Origin: Polyangiales bacterium
GTDB taxonomy: Bacteria; Myxococcota_A; Polyangia; Polyangiales; Polyangiaceae
DNA length: 64,000 bases
Assembly (NCBI GenBank): GCA_038231275.1
Contig: JBBRLQ010000010.1
Location: forward strand, 64,001 to 128,000
Direction: 5' to 3'
Under the pieces are notes generated by a model. The model had not been told where the DNA came from. It was given only the letters and a program-made list of their open reading frames with translations, and did not search any database. Below, piece after piece: positions 5,483 to 47,015 of the stretch; positions within the stretch are counted from its first letter, which is position 1, and each line of letters begins with the position of its first letter. The position numbers and the translations under genes were made by a program.

Positions 5483-7867
5483 CTACCTCGCGCGACGACG
5501 ACGCCAAAGCCCGACGAGCCCGACGAGCCCGACGGCCACGAGCGCGCCCGACGGATTCGCGGGCGTGCCGACGACGCGGCAACCGCACCCGCTGCTGCTG
5601 CTCCCGCCGTTGGCTCCGTCGCCGGTTCCTGCATCGTTCCCGCCGCCGCCGCCGGGCGCGTTGGCGTCACCGCCTCCTCCTCCGCCACCACCACCACCAC
5701 CGCCGCCGCCGTCCGCGCCGCCGTCACCGAGGGCCCCGACGCACTGGTTTCCCACGCACGTTGCGTCGGCCGCGCACGTGCCGCAGCTCACCGTTCCTCC
5801 GCAGCCGTTCGTGATCGTTCCGCACGTCTGTCCAGCCCCGCACTTGGTGACCGGCACGCACCCGCCGACCGTGAGCTGCGCCGACGTCGCGTGCACCGCG
5901 GACGGCGCTTTGCCGATGACGAGGAACGTCGCAGGCGCCGCCGTCACCGGCGCCGCCGCCGACGCGGTGAGCGTGAGGACGGACGTGGCCCCGGCGGTCA
6001 CGCTCGTCGGCACGAACGCCGCGGTGACTCCGCTCGGGAGATCTTGCACGTTGAGCGCGATCGACTCCGCGGCGCCGGCGGCCGCCGTCGTCGTCACCGT
6101 GTACGTGACCTGCGCGCCGAGGCCGACCGACTGTGCAGGCGGCGCGAGGGCGAGCGAGAACTCGCTCGCGCCGCAGCTCGGGAATTTCACGGTCGCGACC
6201 TGCGTGTCCCACGTCGACGTCCCGGAGGTCGCGTAGAGCTCCGTCGTGTACCAGAAGGTGCAGTCGTCGACGGGGTCGACGGTCATGTTGCTGTAGTCGC
6301 CCCAGCGGCTCGCGCCGTTCTCGCCGGCGGTCCCGGTGTCGAACGTCGTCTCGCCTTGCCCCATCGTCCCCGCCGGATCGCCGACGAGCCGTCCTGTCCA
6401 CGCGATCGACGGCTTGAGCGTCGTGCTCGCGATCGAGAAGCCGAGCGCGAGGTTCTGCGCCTGATCCTGCGCGATGCTCCCCATCCATCGCCACTTGGCG
6501 TCGGCGGGCGCGTACGTCCCCGATTGAAAGAGCGCCGGCGTCCCGTTGGGCGAGCGGATCTCGTACCAGCGAACGCCGCCGGTGGTCCCCGCGACGACAG
6601 AGTGGTTCACGACGAGCGAGTCGTGCGTCCCGAAGTTGCGGTACGCGAGGCGGAACATGAGGCGGTCGCCGAGCGAGTCGAGGTTCGCTCCGCCGCCTTG
6701 TGGAATGCAGGTCCCCGTGGCCTCGCACGTCTGCGTGTACGCGGTGATCGGCACCGCCGTCGGCCCCGTCAGCGTGCTGTTCGCCGGCGTCAGGAAGTCG
6801 GCGTGCAGCTTCCACATCTGGAGCGCGGGGATGAAGTTGCCCTGCGCGTCCTCGCCGAGCTGCATGAAGATTCCGGGCGACGCGGCGGGCGGCGGGATCT
6901 TCCCGTCCAAGCTCGCCGGCAGCGCGCTGTAGACCGTGGAGCCTTGCGGGAAGCACTGCTGCGTCGCGGGCGCGCCCTTCAGCATCGCGACGCGATCGTA
7001 CGCGCACAGCTCGGCGCCGACGTACTGCGCGTCGAACCCGTTGAACGCCGCGTAGTACGCGTCGGGCCACACGCCGAACTTTCCGTAGTCGTTGACGTCG
7101 AACGGGTACTTGTAGTCGTAGAGCCAGTACGCGCCGGTCGGATCGGCGGTCTTCGACACGGCGACGCACTGGAACGACGGCGCCTTCGCGTTGGGGAGCG
7201 AGAACTGCGTGATGAACCACCGGTCGGCGAGCGGATCGTAGACGACCACGGGATCGCCGTCGTTCTGCACCGCGCAGGAGTTGCCCGCGTTGGTGCCCGC
7301 GTAGCCGGTCCACAGCTCGTTCAAGAGCCTCGACGCCCCCGCGAGGGTGCCGTTCTTGTTCCAGACGGCGACGCCGCCGTTGACGGTCTGGACATAGTGA
7401 TTCGGTCCGACCGCGCCGTTGGTGTCGGGAGGCGTGCCGGTGACGGTGGCCTTCGACGTCGCGTTGCCCTGGCCCTTGAAGCTCAGGATCGCGTTCGGCA
7501 TGTTCGTGATGGGCAGGCTCGACTGGAGCAGCGGATCGGGCGTCGCGCTCGCGGGTCGCGTCGTGCGCGGCTTGTAGCGGACCTCGTGCTCGACCTCGGG
7601 GGCGGCGCCGGTCGAAGGCGGCAGCGAACGGAGGGGGAGCGAGCTCTCCGCGTGCGCGACCTCGACGCGCGGCGCACGCTGTACGATCGCGCGCGACGAG
7701 TCCGACGTGAGGGACGCGCTGGCGCTCGAGACGCTGACGCCCGAGCCCGCGTCGCCGCTGCCGTAGTCGGTGCTCGGTGGTCCGCTCGAACACGCGGCGA
7801 GCGCAGCTGCGAGCACGAAGAGGAGGGGCCGCGCGAGCAGGCCATCGGAGCGTTCGGGGCGGCGCAT
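5483..7867 (-). CDS. Secreted lipoprotein with C-terminal MYXO-CTERM sorting signal
   Basis: Lipobox ALAAC; PPDTNGAVGPNHYVQTVN and RWGDYS motifs; Cys-rich repeat, poly-Gly linker, then SSSGCGC + hydrophobic helix + RRRRAR. Confidence 0.8.
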   Translation of the reverse strand: MRRPERSDGLLARPLLFVLAAALAACSSGPPSTDYGSGDAGSGVSVSSASASLTSDSSRAIVQRAPRVEVAHAESSLPLRSLPPSTGAAPEVEHEVRYKPRTTRPASATPDPLLQSSLPITNMPNAILSFKGQGNATSKATVTGTPPDTNGAVGPNHYVQTVNGGVAVWNKNGTLAGASRLLNELWTGYAGTNAGNSCAVQNDGDPVVVYDPLADRWFITQFSLPNAKAPSFQCVAVSKTADPTGAYWLYDYKYPFDVNDYGKFGVWPDAYYAAFNGFDAQYVGAELCAYDRVAMLKGAPATQQCFPQGSTVYSALPASLDGKIPPPAASPGIFMQLGEDAQGNFIPALQMWKLHADFLTPANSTLTGPTAVPITAYTQTCEATGTCIPQGGGANLDSLGDRLMFRLAYRNFGTHDSLVVNHSVVAGTTGGVRWYEIRSPNGTPALFQSGTYAPADAKWRWMGSIAQDQAQNLALGFSIASTTLKPSIAWTGRLVGDPAGTMGQGETTFDTGTAGENGASRWGDYSNMTVDPVDDCTFWYTTELYATSGTSTWDTQVATVKFPSCGASEFSLALAPPAQSVGLGAQVTYTVTTTAAAGAAESIALNVQDLPSGVTAAFVPTSVTAGATSVLTLTASAAAPVTAAPATFLVIGKAPSAVHATSAQLTVGGCVPVTKCGAGQTCGTITNGCGGTVSCGTCAADATCVGNQCVGALGDGGADGGGGGGGGGGGGGGDANAPGGGGGNDAGTGDGANGGSSSSGCGCRVVGTPANPSGALVAVGLVGLVGLWRRRRAR

Positions 7868-7949
7868 GCGGTCACGGTAGCCGACGAGGCCCGCAGGCGC
7901 CCGCCACTTCTCCGCGAGCGCAGACGAATGCGGTTGTATCGTCGACGGC

Positions 7950-8537
7950 GTGTCCGCTCCGCGTGTCGGCGAGAAAATTTCCAGCGACGTTGCGCGCGCG
8001 CGCGTGCTCGATCGCGCCGGCGTGGAGCACGCGCTCGGTGACGAGTGGAAGAGCGGACCGTGCCTGCTCGTCTTCTTGCGTCACTTCGGATGCGTCGGCT
8101 GCAGCGAGCACGTGACGGCGCTCTCCCCGCGCCTCCTGGAGCTCGCGGCTCTCGACGTTCGCGCGGTATTCATCGGCAACGGCGCGCCGTCCATGATCGA
8201 TGGCTTCGTCGAGCGGCAAGCCCTGGCCGACAAGAAAGTCACGCTGCTGACGGATCCGTCTCTCACGGCGTACCGTGCCGCAGGCTTCGCGCGATCGAAG
8301 TGGTCCACGCTCGGCCCGCGCGCGCTCGTCGACTCCGCGCGCGCGCTCCTCGCTGGCCACCCGCACCTCAGCGTCCAAGGCGACGCGTTCCAGCAGGGCG
8401 GTACGTTGCTGGTCGATCGCGACGGCGTCGTTTGTTTCTTCCATCAAGCCACGAGCCTCGGCGACCACCCGAGCCCGTCGGATGTCGTCGACTCTGCGAT
8501 GCGCGTCCGCGCGCGCGAGAGCCAATACATCGTCTAG
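7950..8537 (+). CDS. Peroxiredoxin-like AhpC/TSA-type (PRXL2-like) redox protein
   Basis: LVFLRHFGCVGC (CxxC), LLTDPSLTAY, GDAFQQGGTLLV, DHP. Confidence 0.8.
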   Translation: MSAPRVGEKISSDVARARVLDRAGVEHALGDEWKSGPCLLVFLRHFGCVGCSEHVTALSPRLLELAALDVRAVFIGNGAPSMIDGFVERQALADKKVTLLTDPSLTAYRAAGFARSKWSTLGPRALVDSARALLAGHPHLSVQGDAFQQGGTLLVDRDGVVCFFHQATSLGDHPSPSDVVDSAMRVRARESQYIV

Positions 8538-8548
8538 AGGAGAACTCC

Positions 8549-9181
8549 ATGTCGGTCTGGCTGCACGTCGCCAACGCGCTCTACCTCCTCTCCTACTCGG
8601 TGAAGGACATCCTCTGGCTCCGCCTCCTCACGGTCGTTGCCGGCGGGATCCTCCTCGGGCAGCTCCTCGCGGCGTCGGAGCCGAGCCAGGCCGCGATCGC
8701 GTGGAACGTGCTCTTCACGATCATCAACGTCTACCGCATCGTGCTCCTCGTCCTCGAGCGGCGGCCGGTGCGCTTCAAGGAGGACGAGCAGCGCCTCTAC
8801 CAGCTCGTCTTCCGCTCGCTCACGCCGCGCGAGTTCGTGAAGCTCGTCGCGATCGGCGCATGGGAAGAGACACCCGCCGCGCTCCGGATCGTCACGAGGG
8901 GAGAGGACCTCGACCGCATCCGCGTCGTCTACTCGGGCCGCACCGAAGTGCAGATCGACGGGCGCACGATCACGTCGCTCGGCGAAGGAAAGTTCATCGG
9001 CGAGATGAGCTTCGTCACCGGCGACAAGCCGACCGCCGACGTCGTCGCCGTCGAGCCCACGCGCGTCCTCGCGTGGCAAAAGGACAGGTTGAAGACGTTC
9101 CTCGCCGACAACCCGGACCTTCGCGCGGCGCTCCAGCTCGTCATCGGGACGGATCTCGTGGGGAAGCTCCGCGCGGGCTGA
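8549..9181 (+). CDS. Popeye-domain-like membrane protein with cyclic-nucleotide-binding domain
   Basis: RBS GAGGAG before ATG 8549; three N-terminal hydrophobic segments (ANALYLLSYSVKDILWLR, WNVLFTIINVY); LYQLVFRSLTPREF; cNMP signature FIGEMSF..TADVVA. Confidence 0.8.
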   Translation: MSVWLHVANALYLLSYSVKDILWLRLLTVVAGGILLGQLLAASEPSQAAIAWNVLFTIINVYRIVLLVLERRPVRFKEDEQRLYQLVFRSLTPREFVKLVAIGAWEETPAALRIVTRGEDLDRIRVVYSGRTEVQIDGRTITSLGEGKFIGEMSFVTGDKPTADVVAVEPTRVLAWQKDRLKTFLADNPDLRAALQLVIGTDLVGKLRAG

Positions 9182-9252
9182 AGCGTGGAGGAGCCCGCCT
9201 CGCAAGCCACTTGCGAACCCTCCGCCGCGTGCGCACCATCAGACTGGGTGTC

Positions 9253-9522
9253 ATGTCCACGCGCGTTCGGATGTACTCGACGACGTACTGCGGTTATTGC
9301 TTCCTCGCCAAGCGTCTCCTCCGCGCGCGCGGCATCCCGTTCGAAGAGATCGACGTGACCCGCGATCGCGAGGCGCGCGCGCGGGTGGTCGCCGAGACGG
9401 GGCATCGCACGGTGCCGGTCATCTTCATCGACGATCGGTTCATCGGCGGCTCGGACGAGCTCCACGACCTCGATCGCGCCGGCGAGCTGGAAGTCTTGAG
9501 AGCAGGGACGCCCCCAGCATAA
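9253..9522 (+). CDS. grxC: Glutaredoxin 3
   Basis: MYSTTYCGYC, TVPVIFIDDRFIGGSDEL; true start ATG 9253 inside the 8275..9522 ORF. Confidence 0.85.
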   Translation: MSTRVRMYSTTYCGYCFLAKRLLRARGIPFEEIDVTRDREARARVVAETGHRTVPVIFIDDRFIGGSDELHDLDRAGELEVLRAGTPPA

Positions 9523-9626
9523 AGGCAGCCTCGCGGCGCAAAACCCGCGCCGTACGTGGTCTCTCGTCCTACCCCGTTCCGTGCCGTCCTTGAGGCTCCC
9601 TTGCGCGGGGGGTATCGTGAAGGACG

Positions 9627-11009
9627 ATGGCGGGCCAGCCGCGACCTGGCGAGGAATTCCTCGGCAAGTACCGCATCCTTCGAGTCGTCGGCGAGGGAGG
9701 GATGGGGTCGGTGTATGCGGCGCACCACCTCTTGCTCGACAAGAGCATCGCCATCAAGGTCCTCTCGCGCGAGGTTTCGAAGAATCCCGATCACGTCACG
9801 CGCTTCTTGAACGAGGCGCGACTCGCCGCGCGGATCAAGAGCCCGCACGTGTGCTCGGTGATGGACGTCGGGCAGCTCGACGACGGTCGACCGTTCCTCG
9901 TGATGGAGCTGCTCGAAGGTGGCGATCTCGCCGCGGCGCTGCGTGCGCGCGGGCCGCTCCCGATCTGGGACATCGTCGACATCGCGCTCGGCGTCCTCGA
10001 GGGGCTCGTCCACGCGCACGTGCGCGGCATCGTGCACCGCGATTTGAAGCCGTCAAACCTCTTCCTCGCGATCGAGCCGGAGGGGGGGCCGGTGGTGGTG
10101 AAGGTGCTCGACTTCGGGATCTCGAAGTTCGAGAACATGAACGAAGAGATCCCCGCGAGCTCGCAGCCGGGCGCGGAGCCAGTGATCCTCGGCTCGCCGG
10201 CGTACATGTCGCCCGAGCAAGCGCGTGACGCGCGGAGCGTCGACGTGCGCGCGGACATCTGGTCGCTCGGCGTCATCTTGTACGAGCTCGCGACAGGCGT
10301 ATGCCCGTTCGACTCGCCGACGCCGCAGGAGACGTTCGAGAAAATTCGCGGTCACGCCGCCGCCGTGCCAGCGGGCAAGCTCCGCGAGATGCCGGCGGTG
10401 TTGGAGGCCGCGATCGCGCGGTGCATGCGCAGGAACCCCGACGAGCGCTTCCCCAACGTGCTCGAGCTCGCGCAGGCGATCGCGCCGATTCGTCCGGGCG
10501 CCGACGCGGCCGTCGCTCGCATCGCCGCGGTGATGGCGCGCCCGAAGTCGTCGCTCGCCGACTCGTCGACCGGAATCCCCGCGCTCGAGACGGGGCGTCA
10601 CCCGACGAATGTCGCGTGGACCGATGGGGCACCACACCGCGCGAGCCGCCGCGCGATGGGCCTCGGCGCCGCGTTGGGGGTCGCGATCCTCGTCACGCTC
10701 GGCCTCGTGTTCGTGCTCCACAAGAAGGCGACCTCGCGCGCCGTCGCCACCGCGTCCGCGCGGACGACCGCCGAGACGACACTCCCGCCTGCGCCCGCGG
10801 CTCTGCCCGTCGCCGTGGCCGCGCCCGATCCGATGGCGCCGATGCCTTCCGCCGATCCCGCGGATCCGGATCCGTCGTCGATCGCCGCCGCATCGCCGTC
10901 CGCGTCGTCGGGGCAAGGCGCACGCACGGTGTCGAGGCCGCCTGGTCCCGGTCCCGCTCATGCGCCCGGCAAGCCGTCCAAGCAGGACCTGCTCAAGGAC
11001 CGCCGTTGA
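9627..11009 (+). CDS. Membrane Ser/Thr protein kinase (Hanks type)
   Basis: GEGGMGSVY, IAIK, HRDLKPSN, DFG, YMSPEQ, DIWSLG; TM helix then Pro/Ala-rich tail. Confidence 0.95.
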   Translation: MAGQPRPGEEFLGKYRILRVVGEGGMGSVYAAHHLLLDKSIAIKVLSREVSKNPDHVTRFLNEARLAARIKSPHVCSVMDVGQLDDGRPFLVMELLEGGDLAAALRARGPLPIWDIVDIALGVLEGLVHAHVRGIVHRDLKPSNLFLAIEPEGGPVVVKVLDFGISKFENMNEEIPASSQPGAEPVILGSPAYMSPEQARDARSVDVRADIWSLGVILYELATGVCPFDSPTPQETFEKIRGHAAAVPAGKLREMPAVLEAAIARCMRRNPDERFPNVLELAQAIAPIRPGADAAVARIAAVMARPKSSLADSSTGIPALETGRHPTNVAWTDGAPHRASRRAMGLGAALGVAILVTLGLVFVLHKKATSRAVATASARTTAETTLPPAPAALPVAVAAPDPMAPMPSADPADPDPSSIAAASPSASSGQGARTVSRPPGPGPAHAPGKPSKQDLLKDRR

Positions 11010-11947
11010 CACGCCTCGCGCGCGCGTTGGGCCTCGCCGTCACCCTCGTCACGACCTCCGCCGTCGCGGTCGCGGCGGAGCCCGAGGACATGAAGCGCGC
11101 CGACGTCCTTTTTCGCGAGGGGCAGCGCCTCCTCAAGGCAGGGCAGGTCCCCGAGGCGTGCGAATCGTTCGCGCAGAGCCTCAAGATCGATCCCGCCGTC
11201 GGCACGCTCTTGAACCTCGCCGAGTGCCATGCGCAGGCGCGGCGGTTCGCGTCGGCCCACGCCGAGTTTCTCGAGGCCGCGCGTCTGGCGCGTGAGAGCG
11301 GGCAACACGAGCGCGAGACGTTCGCGAAGGAGCAGGCCGCGCAGAGCGAGGCGGTGCTGTCCTTCGTGGAGGTGCGCCTCCCGACCGGCGTCGATGCCGT
11401 CACCCTCGACGAGAAGCCGATCCCGAAGGCGACACTCGCGCGACCGATCGCCCTCGACTCCGGCGCGCACGTCCTCGTCGCGTCCGGCGCGGGCAAGCTC
11501 GCGCGGACCGTGCGGCTCGACGTGAAGAACGGCCCGAGCACCCAGACCGTCGACGTCGCGCCGCTCGATCCCGTCGCCGCGGCGCACGTCGAGCCGCCGC
11601 CGCACCACGACGATCCCGCGCGCCCCCGCCGCATCGCCGGGCTCGCCACGGCGGGGGTCGGCGTGATCGCGCTCGGCCTCGGCGCCTTCTTCGGCCTGCG
11701 CGCGGCCGGCAAAAAGAGCGATGCCGAGCCGCACTGCAACGGCCACTTCTGCGACGACGAGGGGCTGTCGCTGCAAGACGACGCGCACTCTGCCGCGACG
11801 ATCTCCACGGTGGCGTTCGTGGTCGGCGTGCTCGCGGTCGGCGCCGGCTCGTATCTTTACCTCTCCGTTCCGCGCCCCGCGAAGGGCATCGCGCGCGCTC
11901 GCGTGGTTCCCACCGTGACCGGCCTGCGCGTCGAGGCGGCGTGGTAA
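11006..11947 (+). CDS. Exported TPR + PEGA-like protein with hydrophobic C-terminal region
   Basis: TTG start overlapping kinase stop; signal peptide; ADVLFREG..ACESFAQS..GTLLNLAEC TPR-like helices. Confidence 0.75.
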   Translation: MTRLARALGLAVTLVTTSAVAVAAEPEDMKRADVLFREGQRLLKAGQVPEACESFAQSLKIDPAVGTLLNLAECHAQARRFASAHAEFLEAARLARESGQHERETFAKEQAAQSEAVLSFVEVRLPTGVDAVTLDEKPIPKATLARPIALDSGAHVLVASGAGKLARTVRLDVKNGPSTQTVDVAPLDPVAAAHVEPPPHHDDPARPRRIAGLATAGVGVIALGLGAFFGLRAAGKKSDAEPHCNGHFCDDEGLSLQDDAHSAATISTVAFVVGVLAVGAGSYLYLSVPRPAKGIARARVVPTVTGLRVEAAW

Positions 11948-11949
11948 AC

Positions 11950-13407
11950 ATGTATATTGCACGGATCGCCGCGGTGCTCGCCGCGTCAGCGATTCTGTGC
12001 GCGTGCGCGGTGGTCCTCGGCCTCGACGATCACGAGCGCTACCCGGTCACCGACGCGGCCTCCGACGTCGGGCCCCTCGACGCGTCGCCGTGCGGCGATA
12101 CGCAGACCGATCCCCTCAACTGTGGGCAGTGCGGCGTCGCGTGCTCCGCGGGCTACGCGTGCATCGCCGGAAAATGCGGCAACGAGGTCGTCGGCGTGTC
12201 GGCCGGCTCGAACGGCTGCGCGCTTCTTCGCGGCGGTGAGGTTTGGTGCTGGGGTCCCAACACCGCCGGACAGCTCGGCGTCCGCGCCGACACCTGCACC
12301 GCATGCCCCAAGCCCGCGAAGGTCGACGGCGTGACCGACGCCGTGGAGCTCTCCACCAGCGCGAACGCGTCGTGTGTCCGCGACAAGGCCGGCGCCGTCT
12401 CGTGCTGGGGCATCAACAACCTCGGCCAGCTCGGGCATCCCGCCACCGATCCCAACTGCGCGTACGGCGGCCCGTGCAACGGCAAGCCTCAAGTCGTGAC
12501 GATGCCGGCGGCCGCGCAGATCTCGGTCGGCGAAGGCTATGCGTGCGCGCGCCTCACGGACGGTTCGCTCCGATGCTGGGGCGACAACGCGTTCGGCGAG
12601 CTCGGCCAGGGCGCACCCTCCGATGGCCCGCACCCCGTGCCCGCGAAGGTGGCGATCACTTCCGACGTCGTCGACGTCGCGGCCGGTCGTGCCTATGCGT
12701 CGACGTGCGCCACGAAGAAGGACGGCACCATCTGGTGCTGGGGCCAGAACGTCCGCGGCATCCTCGGACACACCGGGGGCGGCGACATCTCGTGCCCAAT
12801 CGCCGCTCCTTCCTCTCCGTGCAACGCGACGCCGTCCCCCGTGGCGAATTTTTCGACGTTCACGTCGTCGCAAGTCTCGCGCGTCACGTGCGCGAAGCTC
12901 ACCAGCTTGGATTTTTACTGCTGGGGGTACAACGGCTATGGGCAGCTCGGCCTGGGCATCATCGACGCCGTCGACCACGCGGTGCCTGCGCTCGTCACGA
13001 CGCTGAAGGCGACCATGATCTCGACCGGATCGAACCACACGTGCGCGCTCGACGCCGACGGCGTCGCGTGGTGTTGGGGCTACAATTTCTGGGGCCAGGT
13101 CGGCGACGGCACGATCCGCAGCACCACGGCGTGCGAGGGGGGGCCCCAGTACTGCGTGTCGCACGCGGTGCGCGTCGTCAACGTGCCGAAGCTCGCGAGC
13201 GTCGCGGCGGGATCGGAGCTCACCGTCGGCCTCGGCGTCGACGGCACCGTGTGGGCCTGGGGCGCGAACCCCGACGGACGCACCGGTCACCCGGCCGGCA
13301 AGAGCGACGGAGGCCCGAGCGACGACAACTGCACCCTCGTCATCGGCGACGCCAGCGCGGGCGGCCCCTGCACCGCGCACCCCGCCAAGGTGACCGGGCT
13401 CCCGTAG
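11950..13407 (+). CDS. RCC1-repeat (beta-propeller) Cys-rich lipoprotein
   Basis: Repeated CWGxNxxGQLG units; DPLNCGQCGVAC repeat; N-terminal lipobox-like Cys. Confidence 0.85.
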   Translation: MYIARIAAVLAASAILCACAVVLGLDDHERYPVTDAASDVGPLDASPCGDTQTDPLNCGQCGVACSAGYACIAGKCGNEVVGVSAGSNGCALLRGGEVWCWGPNTAGQLGVRADTCTACPKPAKVDGVTDAVELSTSANASCVRDKAGAVSCWGINNLGQLGHPATDPNCAYGGPCNGKPQVVTMPAAAQISVGEGYACARLTDGSLRCWGDNAFGELGQGAPSDGPHPVPAKVAITSDVVDVAAGRAYASTCATKKDGTIWCWGQNVRGILGHTGGGDISCPIAAPSSPCNATPSPVANFSTFTSSQVSRVTCAKLTSLDFYCWGYNGYGQLGLGIIDAVDHAVPALVTTLKATMISTGSNHTCALDADGVAWCWGYNFWGQVGDGTIRSTTACEGGPQYCVSHAVRVVNVPKLASVAAGSELTVGLGVDGTVWAWGANPDGRTGHPAGKSDGGPSDDNCTLVIGDASAGGPCTAHPAKVTGLP

Positions 13408-13447
13408 CGTCGTCACGGGCGGCCGACATGGACTATGCTCCGCGGCC

Positions 13448-14266
13448 ATGTCGCTCCGTGGAAAGACGCTCTTCATCACCGGCGCGAGCCGGGGCATCGG
13501 TCTCGCCATCGGCCTGCGCGCCGCGAAGGACGGCGCCAACGTCGTCATCGCCGCCAAGACGGCCGAGCCCAACCCCAAGCTGCCCGGCACCATCTACTCC
13601 GCCGCGAAGGAGATCGAAGCGGCCGGCGGCAAGGCCCTCCCGCTCGTCGTGGACGTCCGCTTCGAGGAGCAGGTGCAAGACGCCGTGAAGAAGGCCGTGG
13701 AGGCGTTCGGCGGGATCGACATCCTCGTCAACAACGCGAGCGCGATCTCGCTGACCAACACGCCCGGCACGCCGATGAAACGCTACGATTTGATGCACCA
13801 GATCAACACGCGCGGCACCTTCATGTGCTCGCAGGCGTGCGTCCCGCACCTCCTGAAGGCGAAGAACCCGCACGTCTTGAACCTCTCTCCGCCGCTCAAC
13901 ATGGACACCAAGTGGTTTGCCCCGCACGTCGCCTACACGATGGCGAAATTCGGGATGAGCATGTGCGTCCTCGGAATGGCCGGCGAGTTCGCGTCCGACG
14001 GGATCGCCTTCAACGCTCTGTGGCCGCGCACCGTCATCGCGACGGCGGCAGTGCAGAACCTCCTCGGCGGCGACGAAGTGATGCGCGGCTCCCGCAAGCC
14101 CGAAATCATGGCCGACGCCGCGTACGCGATCTTCCAGCGCCCCTCGCGGGAGTGCACGGGCAACTTCTTCATCGACGACGAGGTGCTCGCCTCGATCGGC
14201 AAGACCAACCTCACCGAGTACGCGGTCGACCCGTCCGCGACGTTGTACCCGGACTTCTTCGTCTGA
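13448..14266 (+). CDS. Short-chain dehydrogenase/reductase (HSDL2/AtuG-like)
   Basis: ITGASRGIG, AAKTAEPNPKLPGTI, NNASAI, YTMAK, NALWPRT. Confidence 0.9.
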   Translation: MSLRGKTLFITGASRGIGLAIGLRAAKDGANVVIAAKTAEPNPKLPGTIYSAAKEIEAAGGKALPLVVDVRFEEQVQDAVKKAVEAFGGIDILVNNASAISLTNTPGTPMKRYDLMHQINTRGTFMCSQACVPHLLKAKNPHVLNLSPPLNMDTKWFAPHVAYTMAKFGMSMCVLGMAGEFASDGIAFNALWPRTVIATAAVQNLLGGDEVMRGSRKPEIMADAAYAIFQRPSRECTGNFFIDDEVLASIGKTNLTEYAVDPSATLYPDFFV

Positions 14267-14273
14267 GCGGCGG

Positions 14274-14675
14274 CTACGCGGAGCGCGCTTCTTCGCAGAG
14301 CTCGCGAACGCTGGCGGTCATCGCGCGGATCTCGGCGCGCCCGAACGGCGCCTCGAGCGCGCGATGCTCGGCGAGGAACTCGTCGCTGAGGCCGCCCGTT
14401 CCCGTCAAGAAGACGACGCGGTCGGCCTGCTCGGGATCGATCCGCGCGACGCGGAGGTAGAGGCCAGTCATCTGGTCCATCATCAGACCACAAAAGACCA
14501 CGTCGAACCGCTCGCCGCGCTCGATCCGCGCGATCGCGTCGCTCGCCCGGAGGTCGGCGGCCACGCGGCAGTCGAGGAGGGCAGTCCACACCGCATCGAG
14601 GGTCACTCGATTCTCGTCGACGACGAGGACGCGGGCACCGGACACGACCAAGGAGCGGGAGTGGGAGGCGGGCAC
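14274..14675 (-). CDS. Stand-alone atypical (pseudo) receiver domain protein
   Basis: RVLVVDE...FDVVFCGLMM...VVFLTG...LEAPF receiver pattern with acceptor Asp and conserved Lys replaced. Confidence 0.65.
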   Translation of the reverse strand: MPASHSRSLVVSGARVLVVDENRVTLDAVWTALLDCRVAADLRASDAIARIERGERFDVVFCGLMMDQMTGLYLRVARIDPEQADRVVFLTGTGGLSDEFLAEHRALEAPFGRAEIRAMTASVRELCEEARSA

Positions 14676-14876
14676 GTCCTCAAGCGATGCAGGGAGCGTG
14701 CGCGGACACCGCGCCTCCCTTTCCCGGGGATCCTTGGCGTTCGCCGTCGCGAGCGGTCACCCGAGAAGACGGTCGGCGGCAACTGGCGTGACCGGGCTCC
14801 CCGAAATCGTGGGAAGCTCCGCCGTGGGAGCGCGTATACACGCTTCGCGCAATCACGCGCATGTCGGGAGGCCTCC

Positions 14877-15686
14877 GTGAAGATCAGGTACTTCGTCACC
14901 TTTGCAATGTTCGTCGCGATGGGGGCCGTCGCGGCCTGCAAAGGGAGCGGCGCTTCCAAGGACCAGGGCGGCGCGGCCGCGGATGGCGTGAAGGCGAGCT
15001 GCAACCAGATCCCGTTCCTCGGCACGTGCACGGAGTATCCGAAGGGCCTTACCTTCGCGCTCGCGGAGACGGCGTGCACGATGATCCCCGACGCCGGCTC
15101 GGTGTGGGGCAAAGAGAAGTGCCCGACCGATCGCGTCCTCGGAAAGTGCGTCGACTCGGCGAAGGACGCGCTCTACGAGAACGAGACGGAGATCTACTAC
15201 GCCCCGTACTTCACGCCGGAGTCGGCGAAGAAGGAGTGCGTCGAGGACACGATTCGCAAGGGCAAGACGTACGCGGCCGTCGACTTCAAGCCGAAGGACG
15301 GCGAGGCGCGTGGCGCCTGCACGCGCAAAGTCATCGGCTCGAAGAACACGGGCCCCGACGAGTGCGAGGAGTACCCGTACGCGACGTCCAAGGAAGACTG
15401 GATGGTCGTGAAGATGAACTGCTCGGGCGCGGACGACAAAATGGAGGTCGGCAAGACCTGCGCGAAGGACACCGCCGTGTCCAAGTGCGAGACCAAGGAC
15501 GGCACGGTCGTCTACTACTTCCCGCACGAGGCGAAGAACCAGAAGGAAGCGTGCGAGTCGGCGCCGACGTCCGGCAAGTACACCAAGCTCGGCAGCGCGG
15601 CGATGGCTGCGGCGACGACCCCCCCACCGAAGCACGCCCCCGCGGCCGGTTCGGGAAAGCCCCCGGCGCCGAAGGCCTCGAAGTAG
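14877..15686 (+). CDS. Cys-rich lipoprotein with two internal repeats, unknown function
   Basis: GGAGG RBS before GTG 14877; lipobox AVAAC; repeated CxEYP...C...YY...KxxC units. Confidence 0.7.
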   Translation: MKIRYFVTFAMFVAMGAVAACKGSGASKDQGGAAADGVKASCNQIPFLGTCTEYPKGLTFALAETACTMIPDAGSVWGKEKCPTDRVLGKCVDSAKDALYENETEIYYAPYFTPESAKKECVEDTIRKGKTYAAVDFKPKDGEARGACTRKVIGSKNTGPDECEEYPYATSKEDWMVVKMNCSGADDKMEVGKTCAKDTAVSKCETKDGTVVYYFPHEAKNQKEACESAPTSGKYTKLGSAAMAAATTPPPKHAPAAGSGKPPAPKASK

Positions 15687-15703
15687 CCGTTTTTCGCGGC
15701 CGA

Positions 15704-15737
15704 ATCACCGATTAGAGCAATTGCTCTAATCGGTGAT
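15704..15737. repeat. Perfect 34-bp palindrome
   Basis: ATCACCGATTAGAGCAA followed directly by its exact reverse complement TTGCTCTAATCGGTGAT. Confidence 0.95.
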
Positions 15738-15749
15738 AGGCTCACCGGC

Positions 15750-16580
15750 ATGAAGGCCGGTCGATCCGCCTCGTTCGCTCTCGTCGTGAGCTCCCTCGCG
15801 TGCGGCCGGGTCGCCGCCGATCCCGTCGTCGTCGTCGACCCGATGGCCGACGCCGGCGTCGACGCCCCCGGCGTGGCGCGAAGCGGCGGGTTGGTGTCGC
15901 TCGCGAACACCGACACGGACTGGGCCTTCGGGGCGATGTTCTACGGGTCCGGCCCGTCGTGCACGGTCGCGCGCGTCGACGGCTGCGACGTATCGTCGTG
16001 CTTCTCTTGGTACCCGTGGGACACGCCCGCCCGCTTCGAAGCGATCGGCGCGGTCGAAGTGACCGTCGGAACGACCGTCGTCGACCTCGCGCTCCAAAAG
16101 GACGCGACCTACGTTTCGACCGGGCTCGGGAGGCTATGGAACGGCGGCGAGCCGCTTCGGGCTCACGTGAGCGGAAGCGCGGGCACGTCGTTCGACTTCA
16201 TGACGCTGGCGCCGTCGCTGGTCACGCTGACCGCGCCCGTCATCCCCGTCGGGGCGACGGTGCCGCGTCGGAACCCGCTCCAGGTCGCGTGGGCCGTGCC
16301 GGACGCCGGGGAGGGCGCGATCGTCGCCGAGGTGGTCAACGATCCAAACGGTCCGCTGCCGGCCGTTCGCGCCCGATGCACGTTCGCCCTTCAGGATGGG
16401 CACGGCGAGATCCCTGCGAGCGTGCTCCAGCGGCTGCCGGCCGGTCCTGGAGGAATCCTCGTGACGTCGAGCATCGAGAGTACCCTCCCCGTCGGCGACC
16501 GCGACGTTCGCTTCGAGGCGTTCTCCGTCGCGATCGGCCCTCCCGGGGCGACCAACGGGATCACGCTCGTCTGGGAGTGA
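15750..16580 (+). CDS. Hypothetical lipoprotein
   Basis: Lipobox SLAC; GC3-rich coding pattern; beta-rich sequence. Confidence 0.65.
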   Translation: MKAGRSASFALVVSSLACGRVAADPVVVVDPMADAGVDAPGVARSGGLVSLANTDTDWAFGAMFYGSGPSCTVARVDGCDVSSCFSWYPWDTPARFEAIGAVEVTVGTTVVDLALQKDATYVSTGLGRLWNGGEPLRAHVSGSAGTSFDFMTLAPSLVTLTAPVIPVGATVPRRNPLQVAWAVPDAGEGAIVAEVVNDPNGPLPAVRARCTFALQDGHGEIPASVLQRLPAGPGGILVTSSIESTLPVGDRDVRFEAFSVAIGPPGATNGITLVWE

Positions 16581-16601
16581 CGGCGGCCCGCTCGCTCGGG
16601 G

Positions 16602-43056: not shown

Positions 43057-43572
43057 GTGGAGTCCCTTCTCCGAGGACGCTTGTTCCCCCTTCTCTTCGC
43101 GCTCGCCGGCTGCAGCACGAGTAGCGGCGGCAATTCGGTCGACGCCGCCGCCGACGTCACCGAGGAGACCGGCGCGCGCGACACCGGAAAGGACGGGCCC
43201 GATCTCGACGCCGGCGCCGACGTGGGGAAGGCCGCGCCGGGCGTGGGCTTCGTCGCGTGCGGCGCCAGCCAGTGTGCGATCCCCGGCGAGGTGTGCTGCC
43301 CGCGCGTCGACGGCGGCGCCTGCTTCCCGCGAGGCGCGGCGCCGTGCAGCGGGATCGAGTGCGATCAGCCGGACGACTGCGCCGATGGCACGACGTGCTG
43401 CTACCAATTCCCTGCCGGCTGCGCCGACGTATCGGCGACGTGCAAGAAGACGTGCGGCGCCGCGGACGTGCCCGCGTGCCTTGGCCTGACCGACTGCAAT
43501 GCCTGCGTGTCGCTCACGTGCGCCGGCGTCCCGCTGACGACGTGCGGGACCGACGGCCTCTGCTGCCACTGA
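43057..43572 (+). CDS. Cys-rich lipoprotein
   Basis: Lipobox LAGC; CC and CDxxxDC motifs. Confidence 0.65.
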   Translation: MESLLRGRLFPLLFALAGCSTSSGGNSVDAAADVTEETGARDTGKDGPDLDAGADVGKAAPGVGFVACGASQCAIPGEVCCPRVDGGACFPRGAAPCSGIECDQPDDCADGTTCCYQFPAGCADVSATCKKTCGAADVPACLGLTDCNACVSLTCAGVPLTTCGTDGLCCH

Positions 43573-43592
43573 GAGTAGAGCGAGCGCTCGCG

Positions 43593-44003
43593 TCAGCCCT
43601 TCTCGACGTCCTTGCCGGACTTCTCCCATCCGCGGATGCCGGCGGGCATCACGTACACGTTCGCGTATCCGAGGTTCTCCGCTGCGACCGCAGCGGTGTG
43701 GCACGCGTGTCAGAGCTCGTTAGCGCAGTAGAAGACGAGGGTGGCGTCCTTGTCGGGGGGCAGATCGCCCGCCGTCACTTTGTCGAACGCGACCCACTTG
43801 GCGCCGGGGACGTGGCTCTTCGTCCAGCGCTCTTTGTCGTTGTTGTCGAAGATGAAGGTCTTCCCATCATGCCGGGCGATGCGCGAGGCGACGTCGTCCA
43901 CGCTCAGCTCTTTCAGCGGAGCGCCGCTCGCGGACTTCTTCGCGCAGCCCGCGGCCAAGGCGGCGAGCATCGCGGCGCTGAGCACGAAGGCACGACGGTT
44001 CAT
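43593..44003 (-). CDS. Rhodanese-domain lipoprotein, probable selenoprotein (UGA at codon 98 read as Sec), 136 aa
   Basis: SHVPGA rhodanese motif; LVFYCANEL-TGA-HACHTAAVAAENLGYANVYVMPAGIRGWEKSG continues in frame to TGA at 43593-43595; SECIS-like hairpin downstream of the UGA. Confidence 0.85.
43679..43696 (-). promoter_or_regulatory. Bacterial SECIS-like stem-loop
   Basis: mRNA CCGCUGC-GGUC-GCAGCGG, beginning 13 nt after the in-frame UGA at 43712-43710. Confidence 0.75.
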
Positions 44004-45896: not shown

Positions 45897-47015
45897 ATGC
45901 ATCCTTCTCGCGTCGTTCTGCGCGTCCTTGCCGCGGCCGTCGGTCTGGTCGCGCTCTTGTCCGTGAGCTGCGGCCGGAGCGAGCTGTTCGCCGACACCGC
46001 ACTCACCGATGACGGCGGCGTCGACGGCGCGACCCCGTCGGCGTGCGGATCCTGCAGCGAATTGTCGGCGGAGTGCGGGACCGTCACGGACCGCTGCGGC
46101 AAATCGCTCGATTGCGGATCGTGCGCGGTCCCGAAGACGTGTGGCGGCGGCGGAACCGCGAACCAATGCGGGTGCCAGGCGTCGACGTGCAGCGCGGTCG
46201 GGGCCGAGTGCGGCGAGGCCCTCGACGGATGCGACGGCGTGCTCTCGTGCGGGACGTGTCCGGCTGGCCTGACGTGCGGAGGGGCCGGCGCCAACCGCTG
46301 CGGCCCGAACTCATGTGCTCCCAAGACGTGCGCGCAGCTCGGCGTCGCGTGCGGCAAGGTCTCGGACGGGTGCAGCAAGGTGCTCGACTGCGGCGGATGC
46401 TCGGCGCCCCAGACCTGCGGCGGCGGCGGCACCGTCAACGTGTGCGGCTGCACGCGCAGCACGTGCGCGGGCCGCGGCGCGACGTGCGGCAAGGTCTCCG
46501 ACGGATGCGGCAAAGAGCTCGACTGCGGGGGATGCACCGCTCCGCAGTCGTGCGGTGTCGGCGGCACGAACGCCTGCGGGTGCGTCGCAGCCACGTGCGC
46601 TTCGATCGACGCGCACTGCGGGACGATGCTCGACGGCTGCGGCGGGACGCTCAGCTGCGGGACGTGCACGGGCGGCGGTCGGCGCGGCGGGAAGGTGTGC
46701 ATCGGCTCGGGCCCCGCGAATTGCAGTGAAGAAGGAGAGTCGTGCACGCCGACGACGTGCGCGCGTCAGGGTGCGCGGTGCGGCAAAGTCGCCGACGGGT
46801 GCGGCGGGCTCCTCGACTGCGGCACGTGCGCGGTTGGCCAAACCTGCGGCGGTGGCGGCGTCTTCAACCAATGCGGCTGCACGCCGACGACGTGCGACGC
46901 CCAGGGTGCCACCTGCGGCAAGCTCGGAGACGGGTGCGGCGGCAGTCTCGACTGCGGCACGTGCGCGGCCGGGCAGGCGTGCACGTCCGTCAATCAGTGC
47001 GCGCGTACCAAGTAG
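45897..47015 (+). CDS. Lipoprotein made of tandem Cys-rich repeats
   Basis: Lipobox VSC; about seven repeats of TCxxxGxxCGxxxDGCGxxLxCGxC..TCGGGG..NxCG. Confidence 0.8.
   Translation: MHPSRVVLRVLAAAVGLVALLSVSCGRSELFADTALTDDGGVDGATPSACGSCSELSAECGTVTDRCGKSLDCGSCAVPKTCGGGGTANQCGCQASTCSAVGAECGEALDGCDGVLSCGTCPAGLTCGGAGANRCGPNSCAPKTCAQLGVACGKVSDGCSKVLDCGGCSAPQTCGGGGTVNVCGCTRSTCAGRGATCGKVSDGCGKELDCGGCTAPQSCGVGGTNACGCVAATCASIDAHCGTMLDGCGGTLSCGTCTGGGRRGGKVCIGSGPANCSEEGESCTPTTCARQGARCGKVADGCGGLLDCGTCAVGQTCGGGGVFNQCGCTPTTCDAQGATCGKLGDGCGGSLDCGTCAAGQACTSVNQCARTK

Follow-up and report, generated by a model that had tools for sequence, protein, structure and literature searches.

An exported rhodanese of a Polyangiales bacterium with a probable selenocysteine in its active-site loop

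Gene, reading frame and codon 98

On the minus strand of a 64,000-nucleotide stretch of Polyangiales DNA (the window, meaning the whole stretch that was analysed), an open reading frame breaks off at a TGA in the middle of a rhodanese active-site loop and continues in the same frame on the other side. The question raised by this locus is whether the gene ends at that codon or is read through it, with selenocysteine (Sec) or another residue inserted, and what kind of protein would result. The features that bear on the answer are the following.

43593..44003, minus strand: complete predicted selenoprotein gene, 136 codons with Sec as codon 98, plus a terminal TGA
43947..44003, minus strand: signal peptide, residues 1–19, MNRRAFVLSAAMLAALAAG (from the translation; pLDDT ~52)
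43944..43946, minus strand: Cys20, putative lipid-modified Cys of the lipobox L-A-A-G-C (assigned by pattern match only)
43620..43892, minus strand: rhodanese homology domain, residues 38–128 (PF00581, E 3.1e-13)
43725..43727, minus strand: Cys93, the rhodanese catalytic Cys, following strand 88–92 (invariant in 80 of 80 aligned sequences)
43710..43712, minus strand: in-frame UGA, probably read as selenocysteine 98 (TGA in 49 and TGC/TGT in 32 of 81 orthologues)
43701..43703, minus strand: Cys101, at the start of helix 100–110, forming U-x-x-C with the predicted Sec98 (translation and model)
43679..43696, minus strand: SECIS-like hairpin, 7-bp stem CCGCUGC/GCAGCGG with a GGUC loop, −12.6 kcal/mol
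43593..43595, minus strand: true stop, also TGA (orthologues stop within a few codons of the same place)

The frame opens with the ATG at 44003 and runs for 97 sense codons (44003–43713) to the TGA at 43712–43710, beyond which 38 further codons, HACHTAAVAAENLGYANVYVMPAGIRGWEKSGKDVEKG, lead to a TGA at 43595–43593. Sequence and translation confirm what the initial annotation had described, a 97-residue open reading frame interrupted by TGA in the rhodanese loop and open for another 38 codons. Since the DNA is 69% G+C, an open frame beyond a stop carries little weight of its own, and since the gene's own terminator is also TGA, a general reassignment of UGA is not indicated. A scan of the whole window for TGA codons with coding-like GC3 on both sides returned two places, one of them the present gene and the other read as an antisense shadow open reading frame.

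Orthologues were collected by scanning a genome collection with a single peptide pattern, so that divergent relatives could have escaped; the resulting set comprises 81 genes, that of the window and those of 80 further loci. Codon 98 is TGA in 49 of them, TGC or TGT in 32 and no other codon in any, and the TGA-containing genes include those of three cultured Polyangium isolates (L047, L048 and L051). In an alignment of 80 sequences, Cys93 and position 98 are both invariant, the latter as Sec or Cys. On the tree, the Sec/Cys state has changed at least six times, with at least three of these changes forced by well-supported branches, and the window gene groups with Polyangiaceae-type sequences in a Sec clade, separate from a 12-row clade linked to MccA that is considered below. 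The strict alternation of TGA with Cys codons across 81 of 81 genomic orthologues upholds the proposal that the UGA encodes Sec. The initial annotation had also raised Trp or another non-Cys residue at this position as an observation that would count against Sec; such residues are found in 0 of the 81 genomic orthologues and in two database homologues represented by protein records only, P0018 (W) and P0022 (L). Among the best 120 database homologues of one protein search, those continuing past position 98 have C in 17 cases, W in one and L in one, and the other two protein searches (best 120 each) gave C at position 98 in 96 and 91 continuing proteins.

The tail beyond the UGA is kept in all 81 genes. 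Over the 36 codons that follow it, differences at codon positions 1, 2 and 3 number 2, 2 and 11 between the window and locus L001 and 3, 0 and 13 between the window and locus L002, and position 3 holds 48% of all differences among the Sec genes. By this pattern of change, the 36 codons 3' of the UGA are evolving as coding sequence under protein-level selection, and the earlier suggestion that the tail is translated is borne out by the third-position bias together with the downstream frame conserved in 81 of 81 genes. It had further been anticipated that annotation pipelines would truncate the gene, and they do: 87 of the best 120 homologues in one protein search stop at the UGA, ending exactly four residues after the catalytic Cys, and the NCBI-named entries of 96–114 residues are labelled simply 'rhodanese-like domain-containing protein'.

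The hairpin downstream of the UGA

The initial annotation placed a SECIS element just 3' of the UGA. The hairpin found there has its 5' arm CCGCUGC at 43696–43690, the loop GGUC at 43689–43686 and the 3' arm GCAGCGG at 43685–43679; it begins 13 nt past the UGA, with its loop 20 nt past it, and is present in the minimum free energy fold. Like the fdhF-type SECIS of E. coli, whose loop is also GGUC, it is a stem-loop that lies inside the reading frame a short way 3' of the UGA, and its small apical loop contains a G followed by U or G; unlike it, the 7-bp stem lacks a bulged U, and no Rfam or curated model matched. A search of the whole window with Rfam at gathering thresholds returned neither a SECIS nor any other family of relevance, and in the interval 43500–43800 the relaxed limit of E ≤ 10 yielded only a chance-level sRNA match (E 5.3) and no SECIS. 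The bacterial SECIS criteria given in section 5 of PMC13188914 comprise a loop of 3–9 nt, a stem of at least 4 bp, a G within the first two loop positions, a distance of 16–37 nt from the UGA and an energy of −7.5 kcal/mol or lower. The window hairpin satisfies them, its GGUC loop at 20 nt lying inside the consensus range of 16–37 nt stated in that section (PMC13188914).

Across the family, the hairpin tracks the TGA codon, in agreement with the SECIS assignment. A contiguous hairpin satisfying the same criteria occurs in 48 of the 49 TGA genes (the exception being L071) versus 4 of the 32 Cys genes, or 4 of 19 if only high-GC Cys genes are counted, and the median hairpin energies are −11.8 and −5.15 kcal/mol, respectively (Mann–Whitney p 7e-12, with genes treated as independent despite their relatedness). 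In the Sec genes, the spacing from UGA to hairpin loop is always 20–22 nt, the stems are 4–8 bp long, and the loops of all 49 have G at position 1 or 2, then G or U. The hairpins comprise 25 distinct sequences in three main registers, with a fourth register, with a 3-nt loop, in three genes. Double-sided changes are also seen: a U-A pair in the window and in L001 is C-G in L002, by way of two synonymous Ala codon changes, and at another pair C-G (17 genes) is exchanged for G-C (4 genes).

When the codons of its peptide are shuffled synonymously, the window hairpin does not stand out (p 0.15 and 0.16). In shuffles of all 49 Sec genes, p ≤ 0.05 was reached in only 14–15, with a median z of −1.5 to −1.6, so part of the hairpin comes free with an Ala-rich, GC-rich peptide. 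The 66-nt region taken whole likewise folds no better than its shuffles (z −0.96; 36 of 200 shuffles equally good). The argument that the hairpin is retained is therefore drawn from the contrast between TGA and Cys genes and from the compensatory changes, not from the shuffle test. The initial annotation had read the uncommon Ala codons in the stem as a mark of selection on RNA structure; in the shuffles this is not significant for the window gene by itself (p 0.15–0.16), and what stands of it is that the GCU and GCA codons make up the U-A pair that is compensated as C-G in L002.

The rhodanese protein, its export and its relatives

The Pfam rhodanese match scores 50.5 bits versus a cut-off of 22.2, and since residues 38–128 correspond to model positions 5–101 of 102, it crosses the TGA. 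In the AlphaFold2 model, residues 30–136 have a pLDDT of ~97, with strand 88–92 leading through loop 93–99 into helix 100–110; the best Foldseek match is 3nhv_A (E 3e-8, TM 0.72), and the fold is that of a rhodanese. Profile alignment to 6mxv pairs Cys93 with the active-site Cys of that structure and places Sec98 at the site of the Arg in the canonical rhodanese loop. Position 101 is Cys in 43 and Ser in 6 of the Sec forms, and Ser in 27, Cys in 4 and Gly in 1 of the Cys forms. With Ser this frequent at position 101 (6 of the 49 Sec forms, 27 of the 32 Cys forms), the family can do without a U-x-x-C relay. From the alignments, the product is a rhodanese with an invariant Cys93 and a predicted Sec or Cys at position 98, usually also with Cys101.

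A signal-peptide-like N terminus was recognized by inspection in 81 of 81 family members. The lipobox consensus at the end of a signal peptide is [LVI][ASTVI][GAS]C, and 22 of the 49 Sec forms show a loosely defined lipobox-like pattern, as do 8 of the 32 Cys forms. Members without it have an apparent signal-peptidase I type site (ARA, with cleavage before D/E). The proposal of an exported rhodanese that is a candidate lipoprotein is thus supported, and the signal peptide and lipobox of the window protein suggest that it leaves the cytoplasm and is probably held on the periplasmic side by a lipid anchor. Twin-arginine (Tat) export, also suggested in the initial annotation, fares less well. The Tat motif, S/T-R-R-x-F-L-K, is conserved and lies in a long n-region. 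The window protein does have N-R-R-A-F-V-L, inside a signal of 19 residues. Across the family, RR occurs within the first 12 residues of 19 of 49 Sec and 4 of 32 Cys forms and RRxF-type motifs are present in 5 of 49 and 0 of 32, respectively; no Tat-signal model was among the Pfam and NCBIfam matches of the window protein at E ≤ 0.1. Judged by these motif counts, a Tat signal appears not to be conserved across the family.

Rhodanese-like selenoproteins are an established category, of which five forms are listed in PMC13188914; no single-Sec motif in that list is C-x4-U-x2-C. None of the NCBIfam models reaches its cut-off for the window protein. The best NCBIfam similarity is to the rhodanese part of the form 5 protein TsoB (NF045694), a rhodanese/DsbD fusion selenoprotein, at E 5.5e-11; it covers residues 78–134 of the window protein, where the active-site loop lies. 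This model is matched by all 80 family members, at best with E 2.6e-17. The motif of TsoB is given as UxxxxU (table in PMC13188914), with the same five-residue chalcogen spacing as C93-x4-U98, and we infer that the two motifs align. The window protein nevertheless differs from TsoB in reaching 41 bits over 57 residues versus a cut-off of 805 bits, in being a single domain of 136 residues without a DsbD part, and in having one predicted Sec in place of two, with Cys at the first position and Cys101 in addition. The form 3 model NF041203 ('LYCAU', CxU) describes a similarly small rhodanese of ~126 residues with Sec close to a retained Cys, and is matched end to end (residues 15–134 to model positions 5–124 of 126). 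Here the score is 36 bits versus a cut-off of 115 (best E over 80 members, 4.2e-14), and Sec comes two residues after Cys (CxU) in NF041203 but five after it (C-x4-U) in the window protein.

A further listed protein, 'form 1', has the motif UxxS, with the Geobacter protein WP_010941598.1 as its example (Zhang and Gladyshev 2005, as cited in PMC13188914). Compared by motif alone, 6 of the 49 Sec forms agree with it (U-x-A/S-S), so form 1 may belong to the same lineage; no Geobacter was present among the 80 loci or among the source-named entries of the best 120 matches of the three protein searches. ExtH, a Geobacter rhodanese-like lipoprotein, was considered as an equivalent and rejected, being a 49-kDa protein (PMC5877670).

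The Cys-type relatives include a group encoded beside MccA/SirA, an octahaem sulfite reductase, in Shewanella, Ferrimonas, Paraferrimonas, Edwardsiella, Sutterella and Bryobacterales. These belong to the same family as the window protein, at 30–40% identity, with an invariant C-x4-C loop and a signal peptide, and make up the MccA-linked clade, whose 12 rows are all of the Cys type (SH-aLRT 97). By Pfam, the Cys-type gene lies directly downstream of a multihaem cytochrome gene in five loci (L072 twice, L078, L056, L062 and L066); for L055 and L060, the adjacency was read from gene layout only. The neighbour in L078 matches MccA (4rkm) at E 1e-234 and is the sole neighbour matched to MccA. L072 and L078 also have FKBP isomerase, Fe-S and NrfD-like genes and a divergent CcmF-like gene nearby, and L072 a thioredoxin-like gene. 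Unlike these relatives, the window gene has no multihaem cytochrome neighbour among the 40 window open reading frames searched, and lies outside the MccA-linked clade.

Proposed mechanism, alternatives and significance

The explanation that best accommodates these observations, and one that we regard as very probable on sequence grounds, is that the gene encodes an exported rhodanese selenoprotein decoded by way of its SECIS hairpin. The hairpin at 43696–43679, its loop 20 nt past the UGA at 43712–43710, would act as the SECIS and recruit SelB and Sec-tRNA(Sec), and selenocysteine would be inserted at position 98 in place of termination, yielding a protein of 136 residues. Its cleavable signal peptide would end in a lipobox, leaving a single rhodanese domain after export. 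The active-site loop, two residues longer than in solved rhodaneses, retains the catalytic Cys93, with Sec98 at the canonical Arg site and Cys101 on the first turn of the helix after the loop. In the proposed cycle, Cys93 would become a persulfide by accepting sulfane sulfur from a donor such as thiosulfate or polysulfide; attack by Sec98 would then free sulfide and leave a Cys93–Sec98 selenenylsulfide; and this bond might be handed to Cys101 through a U-x-x-C relay, with an extracytoplasmic thiol-disulfide oxidoreductase restoring the reduced state. Support for such a mechanism comes from the similarity to TsoB, with its DsbD fusion, and from the Cys clade adjoining MccA-like cytochrome genes. 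That a Cys93–Sec98 pair handles sulfane sulfur by redox chemistry outside the cytoplasm is plausible but stops somewhat short of probable.

Alternatively, Sec may be real and the protein a plain carrier of sulfur or selenium without a cycle of Cys–Sec bonds, comparable to Sud, a periplasmic polysulfide carrier, or serving selenium delivery. Rhodaneses are classically transferases, relatives of the window protein adjoin the MccA sulfite reductase, and Cys101 is dispensable in many members, all of which would suit a carrier, as would the Geobacter rhodanese-like lipoproteins described in clusters associated with selenite reduction and with a polysulfide-reducing selenoprotein (PMC5877670, PMC13510729). 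Two invariant chalcogen residues five positions apart in a single loop and the similarity to the DsbD-fused UxxxxU protein point instead to an intramolecular redox pair, and a scan of the window and of the flanks of 12 Sec loci found no conserved partner gene beside the Sec forms, so that a carrier role appears rather unlikely. The genes that do neighbour the 12 scanned Sec loci vary, and include Ser/Thr kinase, histidine kinase, VWA, GNAT and HesB-like genes.

Sec decoding, as proposed here, presupposes a capacity of the host genome that is assumed. No selA, selB, selD or tRNA-Sec gene was found in the 64-kb window: Pfam searches of 40 window open reading frames gave no SelA, SelB or SelD and no multihaem cytochrome, and ARAGORN found no tRNA there. 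For 60 of the 80 loci the flanks were scanned as well, and there ARAGORN gave just a tRNA-Gln and a tRNA-Ala, and no tRNA-Sec. An alternative in line with these results is that hosts without a Sec pathway read the UGA by near-cognate insertion of Trp or Cys, possibly stimulated by the hairpin, and the W of P0018 could be taken the same way; it could also be encoded by TGG, or by TGA under another translation table. Against such read-through stand the strict alternation of TGA with Cys codons, which is the usual signature of Sec, the hairpin spacing and G(G/U) loop, which fit the SelB-type model, and the terminal TGA, which argues against general codon reassignment; we consider it very unlikely.

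The absence of Sec machinery from the window is also in line with a pseudogene or a genuine 97-residue reading frame, with the downstream frame open merely because stops are rare in GC-rich DNA; gene callers end 87 of the 120 best database homologues at this point, and at 69% G+C open frames are cheap. Yet a rhodanese ending at residue 97 would be without the helix and strands needed to complete its fold, the tail is kept in 81 of 81 genes with change biased to third positions, and the TGA persists in 49 genomes and swaps with Cys codons only, which makes this reading highly improbable. An assembly or sequencing error for TGC or TGT, from which TGA is one base removed and which the Cys forms do carry, can be set aside, as 48 other independently assembled genomes, isolates included, have TGA at the same codon and the TGA genomes carry a hairpin that most Cys forms are without.

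The UGA is almost certainly read through with selenocysteine, and the window protein then joins the rhodanese-like selenoproteins already described instead of founding a system of its own. As a well-supported but unexceptional instance of something already known, it leaves the view of selenoprotein synthesis unchanged. Whether it represents a sixth, uncatalogued form, a lipid-anchored extracytoplasmic enzyme of Myxococcota in which Sec is the resolving partner of the rhodanese Cys and whose Cys relatives are linked to MccA, is a possibility on the doubtful side. If so, a sulfur transferase would have become a persulfide/polysulfide or thiosulfate reductase that is widespread in Myxococcota and that public annotation consistently truncates, and the Cys relatives would be unrecognized accessory components of MccA sulfite respiration.

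This gene and related ones are at present mis-annotated as 'rhodanese-like' or hypothetical proteins of ~91–118 residues with a third of the domain missing, and none of the curated NCBIfam selenoprotein models would rescue these truncated entries. A literature search combining selenocysteine or selenoprotein with Myxococcota found no paper, and recognition of the family would add an exported selenoprotein to this phylum. The retained catalytic Cys with a probable Sec five residues later would offer a testable handle on the role of a second chalcogen in the rhodanese loop, a question that takes in both TsoB, with its two Sec residues, and the Cys-Cys rhodaneses whose genes adjoin that of the MccA sulfite reductase.

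The rhodanese frame and codon 98

The rhodanese gene and its elements lie on the minus strand of the window; residue numbers refer to the read-through product.

44003 to 43712–43710, minus strand: first ORF, from ATG to the internal TGA (codon 98), 97 codons, from sequence and translation
To 43595–43593, minus strand: continued frame after the internal TGA, 38 codons, to a second TGA
Residues 1–19, minus strand: signal peptide MNRRAFVLSAAMLAALAAG, followed by Cys20, lipoprotein-signal-like by appearance
43696–43690, minus strand: hairpin 5′ arm, CCGCUGC
43689–43686, minus strand: hairpin loop, GGUC
43685–43679, minus strand: hairpin 3′ arm, GCAGCGG

Translation through the TGA gives a product of 136 residues, in which the Pfam rhodanese model PF00581 covers residues 38–128 (E = 3.1e-13, model positions 5–101 of 102) and spans the internal TGA without interruption. 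As the window has a G+C content of 69%, an open frame beyond a stop is weak evidence taken alone; the real observation is the continuity of the domain over the TGA. A window-wide scan found no second in-frame TGA candidate, except one read as an antisense shadow. No tRNA genes were found in the 64-kb window, no SelA, SelB or SelD among the 40 window ORFs scanned, and no tRNA-Sec in the flanks of 60 loci scanned.

Used as a query against protein databases, the 136-residue product returned 165 matches, the best 120 of which were classified. Exactly four residues past the catalytic Cys, the place expected for the TGA, 87 of these 120 listed homologues stop; among those reading on, the next residue is Cys in 17, Trp in one (P0018) and Leu in one (P0022), and the motif is absent from 14. 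The Trp and Leu could be real substitutions, or TGA under another translation table.

A genome scan using one genome per species yielded 80 orthologous loci (L-numbers), mostly from Myxococcota assemblies, three of them cultured Polyangium isolates, with the others from Bryobacterales, Thermoanaerobaculia, Binatia, Bdellovibrionota, Ferrimonas, Paraferrimonas, Shewanella, Edwardsiella and Sutterella. Read in frame and with the window included, 49 of 81 genes have TGA at codon 98 (Sec forms) and 32 have TGC or TGT (Cys forms); no gene has any other codon there, and the downstream motif A-C/S-H..A..A...G-Y..V.....G-I.G-W is present in all 81. Cys93 and position 98 are invariant in an alignment of 80 sequences, from which L007 was omitted owing to reading beyond its contig end. 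Over the 36 codons past the UGA, differences at codon positions 1/2/3 number 2/2/11 between the window and L001 and 3/0/13 between the window and L002; position 3 holds 48% of the differences among all Sec gene pairs. The restriction of codon 98 to TGA or Cys, the conserved tail and the third-position bias together rule out a pseudogene and, with TGA recurring in 49 of 81 genes, an assembly error. At the level of sequence comparison, this pattern is the one by which Sec/Cys pairs are normally recognized, and it bears out the proposal of the initial annotation that the UGA encodes Sec.

The hairpin as a probable SECIS element

The hairpin was found as initially described and is part of the fold of minimum energy; taken whole, the 66-nt region folds no better than shuffles (z = −0.96), and Rfam returned no matching family for the hairpin. 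The bacterial SECIS consensus (PMC13188914, section 5) comprises an apical loop of 3–9 nt, a stem of at least 4 bp, a G within the first two loop positions, a UGA-to-loop distance of 16–37 nt and an energy of −7.5 kcal/mol or lower. With the best contiguous hairpin of each gene scored under this model, it was satisfied by 48 of the 49 TGA genes (the sole miss being L071) and by 4 of the 32 Cys genes, or 4 of 19 among high-GC Cys genes alone. Median hairpin energies are −11.8 kcal/mol in TGA genes versus −5.15 kcal/mol in Cys genes (Mann–Whitney p = 7e-12, ignoring relatedness).

In all TGA genes the loop starts 20–22 nt past the UGA, and one of its first two positions is always a G that precedes a G or a U. 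Most frequent are the loops CGUGC (14), CGUGA (11), GGUC (10) and GGUCG (4). The hairpins comprise 25 distinct sequences, spread over three main reading-frame registers and a fourth (3-nt-loop) register with three genes. Two-sided changes occur at several stem pairs among TGA genes: a U–A pair in the window and L001 is C–G in L002, through two synonymous Ala codon changes (GCU/GCA versus GCC/GCG).

As a stricter control, the codons past the UGA were resampled among synonyms. The window hairpin was equalled or beaten by 15–16% of these shuffles, and p ≤ 0.05 was reached in only 14–15 of the 49 Sec genes (median z about −1.5); the median p of the Cys forms was 1.0. The Ala-rich peptide thus eases hairpin formation, and the rarity of the Ala codons, first taken as a sign of selection on RNA structure, is insufficient by itself, although GCU and GCA do form part of the compensatory change relative to L002. 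The weight of the SECIS case rests on the contrast between TGA and Cys forms.

Byssovorax cruenta (L016), a Cys form that branches within the Sec forms in the phylogeny, retains a hairpin at the SECIS position (8 bp, −14 kcal/mol, shuffle p = 0.024, about 19 nt past codon 98), possibly the relic of a recent switch from Sec to Cys.

Export and active site

By inspection, all 81 proteins have a signal-peptide-like N terminus, and export of the family is well supported on these predicted features. A loose lipobox pattern fits 22 of the 49 Sec and 8 of the 32 Cys forms; the remainder resemble signal-peptidase I substrates. Twin arginines are present in 19 of 49 Sec forms, but an RRxF-type motif is limited to 5 of the 49 Sec forms and absent from all 32 Cys forms. 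The window protein has a short, strongly hydrophobic signal and matched no Tat-signal model in Pfam or NCBIfam. Of the twin-arginine lipoprotein initially proposed, export therefore stands, lipidation of the window protein is likely, and Tat dependence is unsupported.

An AlphaFold2 model built from the 80-sequence alignment has a mean pLDDT of 88.8 (about 97 over residues 30–136, about 52 in the signal peptide), with a strand at 88–92, a loop at 93–99 and a helix at 100–110. Foldseek's top matches are single-domain rhodaneses (3nhv_A, E = 3e-8, TM 0.72). In a profile alignment with 6mxv, the closest solved sequence (E = 1e-20), Cys93 corresponds to the active-site Cys, position 98 to a loop Arg and position 101 to the loop-closing Ser, the loop of the window protein being two residues longer. 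The alignment and the predicted model place Sec98 within the active-site cradle, beside the catalytic Cys93. Cys101, in the first turn of the modelled helix, is found in 43 of 49 Sec forms versus only 4 of 32 Cys forms, which identifies the C-x4-(U/C) pair, not U-x-x-C, as the family constant.

Relatives, gene neighbourhoods and proposed function

A maximum-likelihood tree of 80 rows, based on the last 112 residues with position 98 masked in Sec forms, groups the window with L001 and L002 (SH-aLRT 99) within a nine-row clade of Polyangiaceae-type sequences that are all Sec forms. This tree requires a minimum of six Sec/Cys state changes, of which well-supported branches force three. A separate, all-Cys clade of 12 sequences comprises Bryobacterales, Edwardsiella, Ferrimonas, Paraferrimonas, Shewanella and Sutterella.

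A multihaem cytochrome of ~660–690 residues is encoded immediately upstream of the Cys-type gene in L072 (twice), L078, L056, L062 and L066; L055 and L060 have the same layout, judged from gene arrangement only. The two pairs of Ferrimonas kyonanensis (L072) lie at 7878–10390 and 14099–16592, and the corresponding region of L078 at 7784–9829. Downstream of the rhodanese, L072 and L078 have genes for an FKBP isomerase, an Fe-S protein and an NrfD-like protein (in L072 a gene for a TPR CcmH-like protein is interposed); upstream, both have a divergent CcmF-like gene, which in L072 adjoins a thioredoxin-like gene. L074 carries TPR, Fe-S and NrfD genes, and Shewanella has NosL/NosD-like genes downstream. 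The Shewanella cytochrome (L078) gives a match to the octahaem sulfite reductase MccA (4rkm, E = 1e-234), and the layout is consistent with the sir cluster of S. oneidensis as outlined in PMC6976685. In the literature excerpts at hand, the rhodanese of MccA-type clusters seems little discussed.

No partner gene is common to the 12 Sec loci scanned. In the window, the neighbours are a Cys-rich secreted ORF, a phosphoesterase and a 5′-nucleotidase-like protein, unrelated to the MccA-type neighbours. Two very Cys-rich, secreted-looking plus-strand ORFs lack a Pfam match: one of 372 residues (45897–47015), made of repeats of ~36 residues of the type CG..D.CG..L.CG.C, and one of 171 residues (43057–43572), convergent with the rhodanese gene and likewise beginning with a lipobox-like signal. 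In two related Myxococcota loci the Sec-rhodanese is immediately preceded, in the same orientation, by a HesB/IscA-like gene (PF01521; full-length, unbroken matches; L003, 9433–9876; L008, 9495–9884); HesB-like proteins are a selenoprotein family listed in PMC1794560. A 308-residue glutaredoxin–rhodanese fusion lies 2.6 kb upstream on the opposite strand in L009 (6461–7384, minus), and a 1367-residue multihaem cytochrome c converges on the Sec-form gene in L034, a Myxococcota locus (10533–14633, minus).

A 2026 review (PMC13188914) catalogues five forms of rhodanese-like selenoprotein: UxxS (form 1, with a Geobacter example), UxxG (forms 2 and 4), CxU (form 3, NF041203) and UxxxxU (form 5, TsoB, a rhodanese/DsbD fusion). 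Among curated models the window protein comes nearest to TsoB, in its rhodanese part, but the score is 41 bits against a cut-off of 805, and for NF041203 36 bits against 115; over the 80 members, the best E for any family in the table of their matches is 2.6e-17. UxxS also occurs in 6 of the 49 Sec forms, so form 1 may be the same lineage; Geobacter has no entry among the 80 loci or the named homologues listed in the protein searches. The family profile matches 1107 database proteins at E ≤ 1e-8, the best two being P0122 and P0123 (277 and 307 aa; 240 and 238 bits), whose length, about double the usual, suggests tandem two-domain versions.

From the TsoB similarity and the MccA-linked relatives, we infer that Cys93 and Sec98 form a redox-active pair in an exported rhodanese. 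A persulfide would form on Cys93; Sec98 would resolve it, releasing sulfide and leaving a selenenylsulfide, which would be reduced through Cys101 and an extracytoplasmic thiol-disulfide reductase. The main rival to this redox pair is a pure carrier, working without a redox cycle.

The core of the initial annotation proved right on comparative data: this is a real, well-supported candidate selenoprotein gene with a SECIS-like hairpin, predicted to encode an exported rhodanese. It belongs among the rhodanese-like selenoproteins, an already known category, and its C-x4-U-x2-C site differs from all single-Sec motifs in that catalogue. A single literature search combining selenocysteine and selenoproteins with Myxococcota found no paper. 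The gene is overlooked by current annotation: 87 of 120 listed homologues end at the expected TGA, and named entries among 120 listed of the 1107 profile matches are all plain rhodanese-like, rhodanese-related or 'hypothetical protein'.
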